A stretch of DNA of 64,000 nucleotides, taken from IMG/VR virus record IMGVR_UViG_3300026077_000001. The stretch is one strand, 5' to 3'. The DNA is from a virus (lineage: Duplodnaviria > Caudoviricetes). Shown here piece by piece: positions 30,378 to 59,450 of the stretch. Every line of letters begins with the position of its first letter. Positions within the stretch are counted from its first letter, which is position 1. Position numbers and translations under genes: made by a program. The notes beneath the pieces were generated by a model, which saw nothing but the letters and a program-made list of their open reading frames with translations, was not told the DNA's origin and ran no database searches.

Positions 30378-32122
30378 TGGCAGCAAACGGTAGTTACAAT
30401 CCAAGCAATGATGTACTCACAGTAACGGGAGATGGTTTACCCAATCCCGTTGCTAAGGGTACGTTCCCTAATGCAAACAATTCTAATGATGTTGAGTCTT
30501 ATACTTTTAGTCACGCTTTTACATATAGAGGTGGTACTAACACTCAAGCAGGTGGTAGTTTACCACTAGGTGTTGTTGGAATAAGTGCTAATGGAGTTGT
30601 TTTAAATAATCCATCTGCAGGTACTCTTGGTAGTCCTCCAACTGGATTTAATTGGGTGGCTACTGATGCTTTTGGTATGTACAATCCTGGTGATGATGCT
30701 GCTGGTGGTCGTCCTAATGCTAATGATCAATATCATTATATTGACGGTGAGTTTATAGGTGCTTGGAAAACCAATCAGGTGATGGGTTCTTATAATGATT
30801 ACTATGGATTAAGTCAGTATGTTGGTGACAATATGCGTCACCCTGACGGACACTCTAAGATCTTGGGTCTTGCATTTGATGGTTATCCTGTTTATGGTCC
30901 TTATGGATATAATTTACCACAGGACAATACTTCTCCAGTAGTTTTAATGGAGACGGGATATCAGATGAAAGAATCTATTGCTGTTAATAGACCTGCATAT
31001 GGTACTACAACAGCAAATCCTCCTAAAGGTGCATTAATGGAGGATTATGAATATAATGTAGATAAGGTTGGAAGGCATCTAGATGTTTATAATGGTCGCT
31101 ATTGTTATACTCCTGAGTATCCCAATGGTACTTTTGCTTACTTCATAACACTATGGAATGATGAAACTGAAAGTAAAGAATATACTGTAACAGTTACAAG
31201 TGAGAATGATGGTAATAAGTATCGTCTTGATGGAGTCTTGTATCCAAATTTAACATTTATTCAAGGAAGTACTTATAGGTTTATACAATCAGATCCATCT
31301 AATTTATCACATCCTATTAAATTCTCAACAACAGAGAATGGTATACACGGTGGTGGAGTTGAATATACAAGTGGTGTAACATCTGTTGGTACTGCAGGTG
31401 AGTCTGGTGCATATACAGAGATCACTGTACCTTCTGATGCACCTAATTTATATTATTATTGCCTCAATCATTCGGGAATGTCTAGTGGTGGAGGTGCTAT
31501 TACGGTAGTACCTAATCGTTATATGACACCAAAGTTCCCTTATATATTTGGTCTTTCTTCTAAAGAAACTCTAAATATACCAGCAAATCAAGGTATTGGT
31601 CAGGAATCATCAGGTGGTGGAGAAAGTGGAGGTGGAGAGACCCAAACTACTCCTAGTATTATTATTACTAATCAGCCTACCAATGCAACGATTGCTGATG
31701 GTGGTACTCAAAACTTTAGTTTGATTGCTGTTATAGAACCTGAAGATGGTACTAAAGGATATCAATGGCAAGTATCTACTGATGGTGGATTTGCTTGGGC
31801 AAATATAACTGGTGCTAATAGTACATCCTATTCACTTGTAGCAGCAGCCTTTATGACTGGCTATAGGTATAGATGTATTGTTACTGGACCTCTAGGTGAA
31901 TCACAGCAAGCGTCTAACTCTCCTCTTGCATCTAACCTTGTTATACTCACAGTCACTGGTGGTACTAGTGGCGAAGACACTTCATCGGTTTTGAAGTGGG
32001 ACAGTAGTGTCGGTAAATTTGATATGACATCCATACCACTTGATAGGGATAATGCAAACCCAGACTTTACTAGAAATAATGTACGTTTTGATCTAACTAA
32101 TTATGAATTTGACCTTACATAA
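30377..32122 (+). CDS. Structural protein with YHYH-like, cupredoxin-like and Ig-like domains
   Basis: QYHY and HSKILGLAFDGYPVYGPYGY (YHYH family); SHP...YYYCLNHSGM; IIITNQP..YQWQVS (Ig). Start overlaps the giant-gene stop. Confidence 0.75.
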   Translation: MAANGSYNPSNDVLTVTGDGLPNPVAKGTFPNANNSNDVESYTFSHAFTYRGGTNTQAGGSLPLGVVGISANGVVLNNPSAGTLGSPPTGFNWVATDAFGMYNPGDDAAGGRPNANDQYHYIDGEFIGAWKTNQVMGSYNDYYGLSQYVGDNMRHPDGHSKILGLAFDGYPVYGPYGYNLPQDNTSPVVLMETGYQMKESIAVNRPAYGTTTANPPKGALMEDYEYNVDKVGRHLDVYNGRYCYTPEYPNGTFAYFITLWNDETESKEYTVTVTSENDGNKYRLDGVLYPNLTFIQGSTYRFIQSDPSNLSHPIKFSTTENGIHGGGVEYTSGVTSVGTAGESGAYTEITVPSDAPNLYYYCLNHSGMSSGGGAITVVPNRYMTPKFPYIFGLSSKETLNIPANQGIGQESSGGGESGGGETQTTPSIIITNQPTNATIADGGTQNFSLIAVIEPEDGTKGYQWQVSTDGGFAWANITGANSTSYSLVAAAFMTGYRYRCIVTGPLGESQQASNSPLASNLVILTVTGGTSGEDTSSVLKWDSSVGKFDMTSIPLDRDNANPDFTRNNVRFDLTNYEFDLT

Positions 32123-55431: not shown

Positions 55432-55645
55432 AGATTACGATGATTCCAACTGGCGAGAGGAAATGCAATCCTACGCTAGTGGACCTGAGTTAACACTCTT
55501 GATAGATGGACCTAAAAGCCTTGCACAGTCTTGGCATATGGGTGCATTGTATAACAAATGGAAAAAAATGAAGGGTTATAAAGACCCTGAACCACCAGAC
55601 TGTCAATCATCTTTTAAGGAGTGGAACGATGGAGTTAAAATGTAA
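55421..55645 (+). CDS. Small hypothetical protein (74 aa)
   Basis: MTNKDYDDSNWREE...GPKSLAQSW..GALYNKWKK; ATG 55421 overlaps the upstream gene end and is preferred over 55292. Confidence 0.7.
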   Translation: MTNKDYDDSNWREEMQSYASGPELTLLIDGPKSLAQSWHMGALYNKWKKMKGYKDPEPPDCQSSFKEWNDGVKM

Positions 55646-55769
55646 ATACTGTGGACTTATTGTTCCTAGTACAAAACCTAATCCTCAAAAGTGGTTACAA
55701 AAGCACGAGATGAATTGTGCTCGTAACCCTAATAACAATAAAAGAAACGGACCTATAGGAACAGAGTAA
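55629..55769 (+). CDS. 46-aa C2HC zinc-finger microprotein (not in ORF track)
   Basis: Hand translation: MELKCKYCGLIVPSTKPNPQKWLQKHEMNCARNPNNNKRNGPIGTE; stop overlaps the next ATG (TAATG). Confidence 0.7.
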   Translation: MELKCKYCGLIVPSTKPNPQKWLQKHEMNCARNPNNNKRNGPIGTE

Positions 55770-55918
55770 TGAACAAAGTAAAGGAGATCGCAGTCAAGAT
55801 TAAGGACTGGGATAAAGCACTTGCTAAAAAAATTCAAACCAAATTTAATTTGACTGATTACCAGATGTTATGCCTTGCTTTTGGTAAGGGTTTCATCATA
55901 GGTGCTATTCTTCTGTAG
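55769..55918 (+). CDS. 49-aa protein with hydrophobic C-terminus (not in ORF track)
   Basis: Hand translation: MNKVKEIAVKIKDWDKALAKKIQTKFNLTDYQMLCLAFGKGFIIGAILL. Confidence 0.7.
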   Translation: MNKVKEIAVKIKDWDKALAKKIQTKFNLTDYQMLCLAFGKGFIIGAILL

Positions 55919-55927
55919 CACTATGAA

Positions 55928-55934
55928 CTAAATA
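55928..55934 (+). promoter_or_regulatory. Late promoter motif (CTAAATA)
   Basis: Intergenic, 10 nt before ATG 55944. Confidence 0.5.
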
Positions 55935-55943
55935 TTCTTTATT

Positions 55944-56258
55944 ATGAGTCCAGACAAAAATCCAGAAAGGTTCTATAACAAGGAACAAGTCGATATGCTC
56001 ATCCAAGCTGCTGTTGCTGAAGCACACGAAATGGATGAAGCTATTATGGCAAAGCATAACCGAGAAGCAACTATCATTAGTATGATTCTCGGTTTTACTT
56101 GTCTTGCACTATTCATTGATGGTCTATTAAGGATCCTTGGTATCATCCCACCCTTTATGGATTTGGATGTTAACGTCATTGATGATATAATAGAGAAAGT
56201 TGAACAAGACATTTTACCCATAGTTCAACAAGCTAAAGGGTACATACCAAAAATTTGA
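55944..56258 (+). CDS. Predicted membrane protein (104 aa)
   Basis: Hydrophobic segment IISMILGFTCLALFIDGLLRILGIIPPF. Confidence 0.7.
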   Translation: MSPDKNPERFYNKEQVDMLIQAAVAEAHEMDEAIMAKHNREATIISMILGFTCLALFIDGLLRILGIIPPFMDLDVNVIDDIIEKVEQDILPIVQQAKGYIPKI

Positions 56259-56260
56259 TT

Positions 56261-56473
56261 ATGACTTATCAATCACCACCACCTTCTTGGGATAAAAAGA
56301 GAAACCAAGTGAAGAGTAAATTCTATTACATATTCTGGGGTATAGCTACCTTCTCTGTTGTAGCAGGTCAATTGTATGTTGGATCTGGATATAGAGACTA
56401 TGCTAAATCACTCAATAGGTTGTTCGATACTATAGAATTAGAGGTTACAACACCTGGTCCTAGATTCTATTAA
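56261..56473 (+). CDS. Small predicted membrane protein (70 aa)
   Basis: FYYIFWGIATFSVVAGQLYVG segment; ATG 56261 preferred over TTG 56255. Confidence 0.7.
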   Translation: MTYQSPPPSWDKKRNQVKSKFYYIFWGIATFSVVAGQLYVGSGYRDYAKSLNRLFDTIELEVTTPGPRFY

Positions 56474-56480
56474 GAGAATC

Positions 56481-56495
56481 TTAAATAGGTAAATA
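56481..56495 (+). promoter_or_regulatory. Tandem late promoter motifs (TTAAATA, GTAAATA)
   Basis: Two TAAATA hexamers in the gap before the next ORF. Confidence 0.5.
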
Positions 56496-56504
56496 ACTAT
56501 ATCG

Positions 56505-56726
56505 GTGCCTACTATGGCGTTCGAAGAAGTAAAATCATTATACGAACTTACTGAAGAGAACTACAAACTCCAAGATATGATTCAAATCTACCAAGAAGAG
56601 ATCGTAAAACTTGAACAAGAGAAGGACGTACTCAAAGCAGAAGTTGTTTTTTTGCGTCAACAACTTGAATACAAGACTTTAGGTCCACCAATACATTCAC
56701 AAGACATTAAAAAAGACCCTAGATAG
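56505..56726 (+). CDS. Small coiled-coil protein
   Basis: Heptad-rich; start is GTG 56505 or ATG 56514. Confidence 0.65.
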   Translation: MPTMAFEEVKSLYELTEENYKLQDMIQIYQEEIVKLEQEKDVLKAEVVFLRQQLEYKTLGPPIHSQDIKKDPR

Positions 56727-56740
56727 GGTCTTTTATTTTG
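56711..56740. terminator. Bidirectional rho-independent terminator
   Basis: AAAAGACCCT-AGAT-AGGGTCTTTT with A- and T-tracts on both sides, between convergent ORFs. Confidence 0.85.
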
Positions 56741-56757
56741 TAAATTTTTAAAGAGAT

Positions 56758-56913
56758 CTATGCAAGGACTTCCCTGCAGATACGTTTACAGCTAGCGTGT
56801 TCATCCTCACACTCAATCAAACAGTCAAAGTAGTCGTCTATATTCTCCTGGGTTGAGTTTTCTCTGTGATTCCATTCTGCCATTTGATTAAAATTAAGGA
56901 TACTGTGTGACAT
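56758..56913 (-). CDS. 51-aa four-cysteine microprotein; the only credible minus-strand gene
   Basis: MSHSILNFNQMAEWNHRENSTQENIDDYFDCLIECEDEHASCKRICREVLA; GGAG RBS 6 nt upstream of ATG 56913; ends at the bidirectional terminator. Confidence 0.75.
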   Translation of the reverse strand: MSHSILNFNQMAEWNHRENSTQENIDDYFDCLIECEDEHASCKRICREVLA

Positions 56914-56943
56914 TTTTGACTCCAAACTGGACAACATAACAAA

Positions 56944-56957
56944 GTAACTTTGGTTAC
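56944..56957. promoter_or_regulatory. NtcA-type box GTA-N8-TAC (proximal)
   Basis: GTA-ACTTTGGT-TAC, 30 nt upstream of the minus-strand gene start. Confidence 0.5.
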
Positions 56958-56982
56958 ATCTTGTTCTCTCCAAGTCTACCAT

Positions 56983-56989
56983 TATTTAG
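56983..56989 (-). promoter_or_regulatory. Late promoter motif (CTAAATA) on the minus strand
   Basis: Reverse complement of tatttag; lies between the two GTA-N8-TAC boxes and faces the 4-Cys gene. Confidence 0.5.
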
Positions 56990-57001
56990 ACAAAAAGTGT
57001 C

Positions 57002-57017
57002 TGTATTTACTGATACA
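57002..57017. promoter_or_regulatory. NtcA-type box TGTA-N8-TACA (distal)
   Basis: TGTA-TTTACTGA-TACA, the full extended consensus. On the minus strand TGGTAGACT (extended -10-like) follows with TAGACT 24 nt downstream. Confidence 0.55.
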
Positions 57018-57042
57018 ATTTAATAAAAATTTATGCCTACGA

Positions 57043-57049
57043 ATAAATA
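57043..57049 (+). promoter_or_regulatory. Late promoter motif (ATAAATA)
   Basis: Upstream of the 57072 micro-ORF, nuclease and gp17 run. Confidence 0.6.
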
Positions 57050-57071
57050 CCTACACACTGCATAGGTTCGT

Positions 57072-57155
57072 ATGGTCTGGGTTATCCGTCTATACGTATG
57101 GACGGCTATTTTTATTGGCTTAATAAATCTTTCAACCTTCGCATATATAGAATGA
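57072..57155 (+). CDS. 27-aa hydrophobic micropeptide (not in ORF track)
   Basis: Hand translation: MVWVIRLYVWTAIFIGLINLSTFAYIE; stop overlaps the next start (ATGA). Confidence 0.5.
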   Translation: MVWVIRLYVWTAIFIGLINLSTFAYIE

Positions 57156-57292
57156 TCGTCTGGTCAGTAATTTGGATGGTTGGAATCCTTATCGTAGCGG
57201 TAGGGGTGGTTCTCGTATACATATTTCAGTACGATAATTGGTATCCTAATTATGGGCAAGATGACACCACCAAGCAGAAAGAGCTGCTATAA
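57152..57292 (+). CDS. 46-aa single-TM protein
   Basis: MIVWSVIWMVGILIVAVGVVLVYIFQYDNWYP...; ATG 57152 preferred over 57098. Confidence 0.6.
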   Translation: MIVWSVIWMVGILIVAVGVVLVYIFQYDNWYPNYGQDDTTKQKELL

Positions 57293-57797
57293 CTTTAGAG
57301 TAACGGAGATTAATCGTGTTGTTGACGGCGATACTATTGATGTCACCATTGATCTTGGGTTTGACTTATACAAGAAAGAAAGAGTTAGAGTTGCAGGAAT
57401 TGATACGCCAGAAAAAAGAACAAGAGACTTGGAAGAGAAGGCACTGGGAATAGATGCAACTAATTGGCTCAAAGGAACGTTAGAGGATACTATTAATGGA
57501 GATGATGAACTTACTATACGAACCGAACTTAAAGGTGGTATGGGTAAGTACGGTAGGCTTCTTGGCTGGTTATATGTTGGCGAAGACGATGTATCATTGA
57601 ATGAACAGATGATCGAAGAAGGTTATGCTTGGGAGTATGATGGTGGTACAAAGAATAAGAACTTCGAAGAATTAAGAGAGATACGTAAAAAATTAGGTAC
57701 ACTCGTTGAAGAACCGACAGAAGGTGATCCACTTCCTGAAGTTGGTGATGGATTTGTGGGTGGTACAGGTACATCTAACATTGCAGGTCCATTCTAA
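57252..57797 (+). CDS. SNase/thermonuclease-like nuclease
   Basis: RVVDGDTIDV, RVRVAGIDTPE, GKYGRLLG and LNEQMIEEGYA motifs. Confidence 0.85.
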   Translation: MGKMTPPSRKSCYNFRVTEINRVVDGDTIDVTIDLGFDLYKKERVRVAGIDTPEKRTRDLEEKALGIDATNWLKGTLEDTINGDDELTIRTELKGGMGKYGRLLGWLYVGEDDVSLNEQMIEEGYAWEYDGGTKNKNFEELREIRKKLGTLVEEPTEGDPLPEVGDGFVGGTGTSNIAGPF

Positions 57798-57800
57798 TTT

Positions 57801-59450
57801 ATGGCAGAGAACCAGATATATCTTGGTAACCCGAATCTAAAGAAAGCAAACGTTGCCACAAACTTCACACCTAAACAGGTGAAGGAGTTTATTAAGTGCA
57901 GCAAAGATCCAATCTACTTTATTAAGAAGTATATTAAGATCGTTTCTTTGGATGAGGGTGTTATCCCATTTAACCTCTATGATTTCCAAGAGGATATGGT
58001 GAATCGTTTTCATACCAAACGATTCAATATTGCTAAGCTTCCAAGACAGTCTGGTAAATCAACGGTTGTAACATCGTATCTACTTTGGTATGTAATTTTT
58101 AATCCTAATGTCAACGTCGCAATCCTCGCAAACAAAGCAGCCACTGCAAGAGAAATGTTGGGTCGCCTACAACTTTCTTATGAGAATCTTCCTAAATGGA
58201 TGCAGCAAGGTATTATTGGCTGGAACAAAGGGTCAGTGGAATTGGAGAACGGAAGCCGTCTCTTGGCTGCAAGTACTAGTGCTAGTGCTGTTAGGGGTAT
58301 GTCCTTTAACGTTATATTTTTGGACGAATTCGCATTCGTTCCGAATAATATTGCAGAGCAGTTTTTTAGTTCTGTGTATCCTACTATATCTTCTGGTAAG
58401 TCCACAAAGGTTATTATCATTTCTACCCCTCACGGGATGAATATGTTCTATAAACTCTGGCACGATGCAGAGCGTGGTACAAATGAATACACACATACTG
58501 AGGTACATTGGTCTCAGGTTCCAGGCAGAGATGCTGAATGGAAAGAACAAACCATACGTAATACATCAGAGCAACAGTTCAGAGTTGAGTTCGAATGTGA
58601 ATTCCTAGGATCTGTTGACACATTAATATCAGCATCTAAACTAAGAGCATTAGCTTATGATGATCCTATAACCAGTAGTAAAGGACTTGACGTTTATGAA
58701 GACCCTATCCCTGAACATAATTACACAATTACGGTTGATGTGGCACGAGGTATCGATGGAGATTATAGTGCTTTCACTGTATTTGATACTACTACAATTC
58801 CTTATAAATTAGTTGCCAAATATAGAAACAATACAATTAAACCCCTTATCTTCCCAGATATTATTGTTGAAGTTGCTAAGGGATATAATGAAGCTTACAT
58901 ATTAATTGAAGTTAATGACGTTGGTGCACAGGTAGCAGACATCGTTCAGTACGATTTAGAATATGAAAATTTATTGATGTGTGCTATGAGAGGACGTGCT
59001 GGTCAGGTAGTAGGTCAAGGGTTCTCAGGTGGTAAGGTACAACTTGGTGTTAAAATGAGTTCTACCGTGAAGAAGGTAGGGTGTTCTAACCTTAAAGGAT
59101 TAGTAGAAGACGATAAAATACTTATTAATGATTACGATACTATCGCTGAACTAACCACCTTCATTCAAAAGGGTCAATCTTGGCAAGCAGAAGAAGGGTG
59201 TCACGATGACATAGCAATGTGTTTGGTTATGTTTGCGTGGTTATCTGTACAAGATTATTTTAAAGAACTTCACGACAATGATGTTCGTAAGAGAATGTAT
59301 GAAGAACAGAGAGAAGCAATAGATGCTGATATGGCTCCATTTGGTTTTATTAGTGACGGTATGGATGATGAATCATTTGTGGATGGAGAAGGAGATCGTT
59401 GGCACGTAGATGAATATGGGGATAGAGCATTTATGTGGGAGTACCGTTGA
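57801..59450 (+). CDS. gp17: Terminase large subunit gp17
   Basis: Walker A LPRQSGKST, Walker B VIFLDEFAF, IISTPHG, nuclease DVARG and HDDIAM motifs. Confidence 0.96.
   Translation: MAENQIYLGNPNLKKANVATNFTPKQVKEFIKCSKDPIYFIKKYIKIVSLDEGVIPFNLYDFQEDMVNRFHTKRFNIAKLPRQSGKSTVVTSYLLWYVIFNPNVNVAILANKAATAREMLGRLQLSYENLPKWMQQGIIGWNKGSVELENGSRLLAASTSASAVRGMSFNVIFLDEFAFVPNNIAEQFFSSVYPTISSGKSTKVIIISTPHGMNMFYKLWHDAERGTNEYTHTEVHWSQVPGRDAEWKEQTIRNTSEQQFRVEFECEFLGSVDTLISASKLRALAYDDPITSSKGLDVYEDPIPEHNYTITVDVARGIDGDYSAFTVFDTTTIPYKLVAKYRNNTIKPLIFPDIIVEVAKGYNEAYILIEVNDVGAQVADIVQYDLEYENLLMCAMRGRAGQVVGQGFSGGKVQLGVKMSSTVKKVGCSNLKGLVEDDKILINDYDTIAELTTFIQKGQSWQAEEGCHDDIAMCLVMFAWLSVQDYFKELHDNDVRKRMYEEQREAIDADMAPFGFISDGMDDESFVDGEGDRWHVDEYGDRAFMWEYR

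Follow-up and report, generated by a model that had tools for sequence, protein, structure and literature searches.

The regulator NtcA binds the palindrome GTA-N8-TAC, and in class II activation its site is centred near -41.5 and is combined with a -10 element of the form TAN3T (PMC3898017, PMC9430850), with spacings of N21 to N24 among the NtcA promoters predicted for WH7803 (PMC9430850). Cyanomyoviruses were proposed to use NtcA promoters as well and thus to exploit the 2-oxoglutarate nitrogen-stress system of their hosts (Sullivan et al., 2010, Environ Microbiol 12:3035; PMC3037559). Supplementary file 3 of that study lists 'NtcA like promoters', including P-SSM7 118259 and S-ShM2 125903. 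For late genes, NATAAATA is known as the late motif of cyanomyoviruses (PMC2984593). Here, a locus featuring elements of both kinds is described from a stretch of 64,000 nucleotides (nt) of the virus record IMGVR_UViG_3300026077_000001, hereafter called the window. Positions 56944-57017, situated in the gap between a minus-strand open reading frame (ORF; longest version 56758-56982) and the plus-strand gene that follows, form the core of a self-contained cassette of promoter and leader, which drives the conserved gene of a twin-CX3C microprotein. The variable module of this cassette consists, in the window phage and approximately 40% of its family, of an exact palindrome of the NtcA consensus in a fixed place.

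An earlier note on this DNA had read the locus as a promoter bracketed by two NtcA-type boxes, with a late-type motif (CTAAATAAT) and an extended -10-like element (TGGTAGACT) between them. All of these elements are present, and direct reading also confirmed a distance of 24 nt from the TAC of the upstream box to TAGACT. The upstream box, TGTA-N8-TACA (TGTATTTACTGATACA), occupies 57002-57017 and represents the conserved operator-like module of the cassette. Downstream of it, on the minus strand, follow the T4-type late promoter motif at 56982-56990, with TCTAAATA at 56983-56990 as part of CTAAATAAT and matching TATAAATA in seven of eight positions (CTAAATAAT itself was read at 56981-56989, minus strand), and the extended -10-like TGG-TAGACT at 56973-56981 (minus strand), which is mostly TG(A/G)TAGAAT in relatives.

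Whether the upstream box is more than a chance match was decided by its conservation. As search key, the 15-mer TAGGCATAAATTTTT (57025-57039, minus strand) was chosen, hereafter the anchor, which does not include the box. It is followed by the microprotein gene 120-135 nt later in 89 loci, and the resulting 83 distinct upstream regions served as comparison set. An exact GTA-N8-TAC at the fixed offset was found in 35 of these 83 regions, compared to 0.46% in composition-matched shuffles. The carriers of the in-register box belong to several genera and include P-SSM2 (Salacisavirus), P-SSM7 (Palaemonvirus) and the window phage, and they differ from each other in the central N8 bases. S-ShM2 features an exact box too, but 6 nt further upstream. 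The distance from box to TAAATA amounts to 14 nt in 30 of the 35 carriers and to 13-14 nt in 33 of them. A -10-like hexamer can be located in 28 carriers; it follows the box at 24 nt in 24 of these and has TG two bases upstream in 20. Since it is exact and in register in such a proportion of relatives, the upstream box is not a product of chance. Counting within the window does not add to this. GTA-N8-TAC occurs 35 times (24.2 +/- 5.0 in shuffles) and TGTA-N8-TACA five times (3.2 +/- 1.7 in shuffles). According to a crude gene map, the GTA stands in codon phase 0 for 24 of the 33 sites within plus-strand genes, and the site at 57003 is the only clearly intergenic one, compared to 1.1 expected from 2.1 kb of intergenic DNA. 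Thus, intergenic DNA is not enriched over coding DNA, and the excess looks like an effect of codon usage.

The second box, GTA-N8-TAC at 56944-56957, lies within the leader and has a different standing. In the earlier note, it was taken as a repressor site of the gifA/gifB type, which together with the activating upstream box would form a switch. This reading is very hard to uphold, even though both boxes exist and the downstream one would fall at approximately +10 to +23 of a sigma-70 start, a repressor-type position. Conservation, which supports the upstream box, is lacking here: the downstream box was found in 1 of the 83 distinct upstream regions, that is, only in the window and in relatives with a letter-identical leader. 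Contigs with a 92%-identical protein have the same leader as the window over approximately 125 nt and therefore add no information on this box. The next lineage, whose protein is 77% identical, has neither box, with core promoter and mini-ORF start being retained, so that the conserved site at or downstream of the core promoter known from NtcA-repressed promoters is missing. Moreover, the GTA consists of the G of an ATG and the TA of a TAA stop, i.e., the ATG|TAA junction of a conserved mini-ORF. In the single-cell virus contig AG-345-E15, this ATG-TAA mini-ORF is present and the TAC of the downstream box is missing. The two sites are 59 nt apart; with one site per approximately 1.8 kb, a second one within +/-75 nt has a chance of approximately 8%, which is mildly unusual. 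A hairpin formed from the downstream box was considered and rejected, as the leader fold of -11.3 kcal/mol shows no extra stability over shuffles (z = 0.51). Likewise, no Rfam match at E <= 1, including the glutamine riboswitch or any other nitrogen riboswitch, was obtained for positions 55500-58500. Judged by its sequence, the downstream GTA-N8-TAC is not an operator but a by-product of the ATG-TAA mini-ORF and a chance TAC, and with this non-conserved box the two-box switch falls.

The mini-ORF itself is a regular part of the leader. In the window, the unit spans 56954-56971 on the minus strand and comprises the Shine-Dalgarno sequence GGAGAG (56966-56971), a spacer of 6 nt, the ATG (56957-56959) and the TAA (56954-56956), approximately 40 nt upstream of the microprotein start. 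A strong ribosome-binding site followed by ATG, zero to one sense codon and a stop was found in 64 of the 83 leaders (loci L002-L124), 62 of which encode M-X-stop and two, including the window, M-stop. The second codon most often yields M-I (20), M-H (15) or M-T (12). The Syn9 counterpart is a longer upstream ORF which overlaps with the main start. The arrangement is reminiscent of the two-codon bar minigenes of phage lambda. The mini-ORF is followed by a CT-rich stretch with the potential to pair with the main ribosome-binding site, and own pairs beat shuffled ones. Nevertheless, a specific pairing was rejected, as own pairs were no better than swapped ones (permutation p approximately 0.30) and covariation was missing. 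RNAalifold yielded no consensus fold on the 83 leaders or on the 62 mini-ORF-anchored leaders.

Two counterparts of the upstream box have been published before. P-SSM7 118259 and S-ShM2 125903 were verified as boxes upstream of the homologous microprotein gene, so the kind of feature and two of its counterparts were already available as predictions. Going by its sequence, the upstream box is thus a further case of the known kind of predicted NtcA-like motif, and the conserved cassette itself is newly described here. In both P-SSM7 and S-ShM2, the site upstream of the microprotein gene is the most canonical one listed. Among the other sites of the 2010 list in these two phages (L165-L179), most have no TAN3T at 20-25 nt and several adjoin coding-like sequence; most of them look like chance matches. 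No experimental test of the listed sites was found in the literature searched.

For comparison with the host, Prochlorococcus and Synechococcus genomes were reached via a phage psbA, resulting in a sample of 46 genomes of the family Cyanobiaceae, 44 of which encode NtcA. Exact boxes occur upstream of amt1 in 13 of 30 sampled genomes, and 11 of these 13 are at a similar position (approximately 320-370 nt before the start of the profile match). Nine of the 11 positioned amt1 boxes begin with GTAT, as does the window box, and two begin with GTATCAGT, exactly as in the window. A -10-like CATATT, GATATT or CATAGT lies 22 nt downstream of the box in 5 of the 11 amt1 regions. Upstream of ntcA, exact boxes were found in 3 of 34 regions only, which are therefore of little use as reference set.

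The chances appear about even that the upstream box represents a real NtcA-type operator which activates transcription by the host polymerase. Host NtcA together with 2-oxoglutarate would bind the palindrome, and the bound regulator would help the host RNA polymerase to use an extended -10 promoter devoid of a -35 element, with the result that early transcription would depend on the nitrogen status. The overlapping gp55-type late promoter would in turn enable late expression whatever the nitrogen status. The locus features several traits of an NtcA class II promoter: the palindromic site is present, a functional -35 is absent, and a TAN3T hexamer is found (TAGACT; TAGAAT in relatives). The spacing between box and hexamer is 24 nt. 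A sigma-70 scan of the minus strand revealed no -35 partner here, the nearest GACA-type hexamer being 19 nt from the -10. Among the 83 relatives, 42 have TAGAAT as their first -10-like hexamer, and a TG two bases further 5' is found in 38. The placement given in the earlier note is supported insofar as a conserved palindrome lies at a fixed offset (35/83) 5' of the late motif and the extended -10-like element; as stated in that note, the spacing is 24 and not the canonical 22 nt from the best -10.

This deviating spacing is one of several points which weigh against activation by NtcA. A transcript beginning 7 nt downstream of TAGACT would start within the ribosome-binding site of the mini-ORF; as the late-promoter start keeps this site within the transcript, the late promoter fits the leader better, and relative to the late start the centre of the box is near -33, which is not an activator position. 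Furthermore, 48 of the 83 relatives carry unrelated sequence at the position of the box, which is no nearer to the consensus than shuffles, and the same holds true for Syn9, S-SM1, S-SM2, S-SSM7, P-RSM4 and P-SSM4. Missing in these relatives and in most cultured isolates checked, the box is accordingly dispensable for the gene. The only exact box of S-SSM5 lies far upstream, approximately 95 nt from the -10-like hexamer, and the box of S-ShM2 is 30 nt from its hexamer. Bases beyond the six core positions are strongly conserved as well (TC and AA in the N8, AGACAC after the box), so that the constraint may reflect a longer site, bound by another protein. Finally, the 35 box-bearing sequences share descent.

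Some of these points would be expected if the microprotein gene were purely late, expressed from the gp55-type (C/A)TAAATA, and the palindrome were an interchangeable filler, inherited in a sub-lineage and bound by no regulator in vivo. This explanation is rather unlikely. In its favour, no other promoter element is as widely kept as the late motif, with TAAATA in 59 of the 83 relatives and TAGATA, TACATA or TATATA in the others. In the window, (A/C)TAAATA occurs 14 times in forward and once in reverse orientation, and this sole reverse copy precedes the cassette gene. The motif lies shortly upstream of the gene on its coding strand, as is typical of a T4-type (gp55) late promoter, and looks functional. 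A late gene would also agree with the fit between the late start and the ribosome-binding site of the leader, with the position of the gene directly after the major capsid gene region in Syn9 and P-SSM7, with the lack of the box, even as a degenerate remnant, in more than half of the family, and with the fact that most other NtcA-like sites published for these two phages resemble chance matches and have no -10. Nevertheless, an upstream element is not required by T4-type late promoters, so that neutral DNA at this place should drift. Instead, 35 distinct sequences from different genera agree exactly in six core bases at one offset, with a varying central N8 and an expected box frequency of only 0.46%, and lineages with only 92% identical proteins have leaders that are 100% identical. 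Regarding other copies of the late motif, plus-strand (A/C)TAAATA sequences were found, e.g., at 32118, 35705, 44946, 54203, 55927, 57042 and 59463, several of them just 5' of gene starts, which is consistent with late promoters. The copy AATAAATA at 57042-57049 (plus strand) points from the cassette toward the gene of a 64-aa membrane protein at 57098.

The position of the box near -33 further leads to the idea that a real NtcA site acts negatively, by hindering the late promoter, and that nitrogen stress lowers or delays the expression of the microprotein. The distance of 13-14 nt to TAAATA (33/35) is kept at least as tightly as that to the -10-like hexamer, and it is kept even in the P-SSM7 group, which has no TAGAAT. 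Besides, NtcA sites overlapping the core promoter are known to repress, e.g., at rbcL and gor (PMC3898017). Still, such a role seems decidedly unlikely, considering that no interference of host factors with gp55-type promoters is known from cyanophages and that the conserved extended -10 TGnTAGAAT would be left without an obvious role.

The conservation beyond the NtcA core, extending into the N8 and the 3' flank, could also mean that the site belongs to another binder, either a host regulator of the CRP/FNR family or a phage DNA-binding protein. Its site of approximately 21 nt would consist of the box (TGTATCAG, two variable bases, AATACA) and the adjacent GACAC. Other symmetric sequences at the same place point in this direction, and early promoters of T4-like cyanophages were reported to feature a different host-type dyad (PMC6191309). 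This binder is nevertheless a doubtful candidate, as is the extended site attributed to it, because the core matches the NtcA consensus exactly, and NtcA is encoded in 44 of the 46 sampled host-family genomes. Moreover, the non-box modules contain hardly more palindromes than shuffles do (6-bp arms, 7 vs 2.5), and no match of the cassette modules to the PlmA/CGRE1-type early-promoter dyad, i.e., the GTTG/GTTA-flanked CGRE1 site (PMC6191309), was found. The symmetric sequences at the module position (window-equivalent 56991-57024) comprise TTGC-N8-GCAA (L029, L039 and L074), GTGTG-N6-CACAC (L144, S-SSM7), GTTTGCAAAC (L159) and TTGTC-N7-GACAA (L054 and L069). The assumption that all non-box modules are palindromic operators was rejected, since the excess is weak for 6-bp arms and arms of 4-5 bp are at or below expectation.

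It is likewise conceivable, although unlikely, that the cassette as a whole serves as a platform with a swappable operator between the near-invariant anchor and the invariant core promoter. Different lineages would have inserted different modules, an NtcA-type box in approximately 40% and other dyads in the others, and would thereby place the same microprotein under different host signals, with the two-codon mini-ORF adding a step of translational control. The cassette of promoter and leader comprises approximately 135 nt. On the minus strand, a hairpin is followed by repeats of the TAGGTATAAAC and TAGGCATAAATTTTT type, the variable module of approximately 35 nt, (C/A)TAAATA and TG(A/G)TAGAAT; the 3' part consists of a ribosome-binding site with ATG, zero to one codon and stop, a leader of approximately 40 nt, GGAG with the main ATG, the gene and a terminator. 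In the window, the approximately 85 nt at 56957-57040 share 76-88% nucleotide identity with P-SSM2, P-SSM5, P-SSM7 and single-cell virus contigs (blastn, distant mode), although the microproteins encoded beside them are less than 60% identical.

The anchor was found exactly in at least 119 IMG/VR contigs of very different cyanomyoviruses and is often preceded by a TAGGTATAAAC-type repeat, in the window by the near-repeat TAGGTATTTA (57044-57053, minus strand). It is absent from the nearest record (G001). The anchor has a single copy in P-SSM2 and, with one mismatch, also a single one in Syn9; it therefore belongs to the microprotein gene and is not a general promoter. For the same reason, and because near-matches in the window are at chance level only, its interpretation as a repeated promoter cassette was discarded. 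Both anchor units resemble weak late-promoter motifs (CATAAAT, TATAAAC), for which no explanation was found.

The gene driven by the cassette extends over 56758-56913 on the minus strand and encodes 51 aa plus stop, belonging to PHROG 665 and being homologous to Syn9 gp134 (119237-119413). Its true start is placed at the ATG at 56913, because the PHROG 665 match (E = 1.8e-19) starts at residue 25 of the 74-aa ORF and the homologues begin with MHNL directly after GGAG, a Shine-Dalgarno sequence which in the window precedes this ATG at 56920-56923. Matches to the microprotein were obtained by tblastn in 357 phage records. The four cysteines of the twin CX3C motif (CX3C-X6-CX3C; C31, C35, C42, C46) are invariant in the family alignment, and the structure predicted by AlphaFold2 (mean predicted local distance difference test score, pLDDT, 74.6) would be a helical hairpin with cysteines on both helices. 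The peptide is thus a twin-CX3C helical hairpin by prediction and not DUF4278/IF17-like. Neither a Pfam domain nor a host homologue was found, and a quick search, which is no proof of absence, revealed no match in P-HM1, P-HM2 and S-PM2. By position and size, PSSM7_131 would be the P-SSM7 counterpart. In the GenBank records of P-SSM2, S-CAM8 and ACG-2014b/g, the gene is not annotated. Evidence on the RNA level comes from the assembled contigs of four metatranscriptomes, which give no start sites, strand or conditions and are uninformative for the parts they do not cover. One of these contigs covers 56725-56913 with zero differences, and the element of a relative is present in one metatranscriptome contig.

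The genomic place of the cassette varies. In Syn9 and P-SSM7, it is located after the capsid gene g23 and before g3 (loci L129, Syn9 119000-119420, and L003, P-SSM7), whereas in the lineage of the window (L151-L164) it is inverted and situated among small genes beside an SNase-type endonuclease. The different place and the inversion fit a mobile, self-contained unit. One further locus (L110) features two cassette copies 6 kb apart. The window derives from a T4-like cyanomyovirus; a piece of approximately 3 kb around the site matches P-RSM6, P-RSM1, S-SSM5 and others, and the match to cyanomyoviruses spans the endonuclease and large terminase genes. Four other short minus-strand ORFs besides the cassette gene were found in the crude ORF map, and no transfer RNA was detected in the window by ARAGORN.

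At its 3' end, the microprotein gene adjoins a convergent plus-strand gene (56505-56726) across a putative two-way hairpin at 56711-56734, which features T and A runs on either side and 10 pairs on the plus strand in the terminator scan. A metatranscriptome contig (run X16) ends within this hairpin, at 56725. The hairpin is likely to terminate transcription in both directions and to mark the cassette's 3' end. Directly upstream of the cassette, the same scan revealed a terminator-like hairpin in gene orientation (57049-57067, minus strand), which would insulate the cassette against read-through; a GC hairpin with T-run is found at the equivalent place in many relatives. Another terminator-like hairpin with T-run, at 57086-57105 (plus strand), overlaps the start-codon region of the 64-aa plus-strand ORF (57098-57292), so that this hairpin would not be a terminator unless the true start of the ORF lies further downstream.

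NtcA sites in marine cyanophages have been predictions since 2010, and most of the listed sites look like chance. With an exact box that holds a fixed position and persists across genera, the locus described here is the best candidate found for an actual test. The box occurs in cultured pairs of phage and host, namely P-SSM7 and P-SSM2 on Prochlorococcus NATL strains and S-ShM2 on Synechococcus WH8102, and the natural promoter versions without box in Syn9, S-SM1 and P-SSM4 are usable as controls. A positive result would be, to our knowledge, the first direct evidence of a cyanophage reading the nitrogen status of its host via NtcA, and a negative one would call for caution against motif-only annotation of NtcA sites in viral genomes.

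Among the known systems, the sites listed by Sullivan et al. (2010; PMC3037559) are from the same kind of phage and share the intergenic GTA-N8-TAC, in the case of P-SSM7 at the same offset as in the window. In contrast, that list gives positions only, without the cassette, the fixed offset, the replacement modules or the mini-ORF leader, and it does not include the site in P-SSM2. Canonical NtcA class II promoters, e.g., of glnA, amt1 and urtA, have in common with the window locus the exact palindrome, a TAN3T-type hexamer and the lack of a -35; here, the hexamer is additionally extended by TG, and the left half-site GTATC(A) resembles the sampled host amt1 boxes. Unlike in these promoters, the spacing amounts to 24 and not 22 nt, a T4-type late promoter is located between box and -10, the predicted start lies in the ribosome-binding site of the mini-ORF, the gene encodes a phage microprotein and the box is optional in the family. 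Overlapping early and late promoters have further been proposed to underlie 'middle' expression in cyanomyoviruses and RB49 (reviewed in PMC2984593). As in these, a sigma-70-type -10 and a NATAAATA-type motif are situated within approximately 10 nt of each other, whereas the sigma-70-type element of the window has no -35 and features an activator-type palindrome instead.

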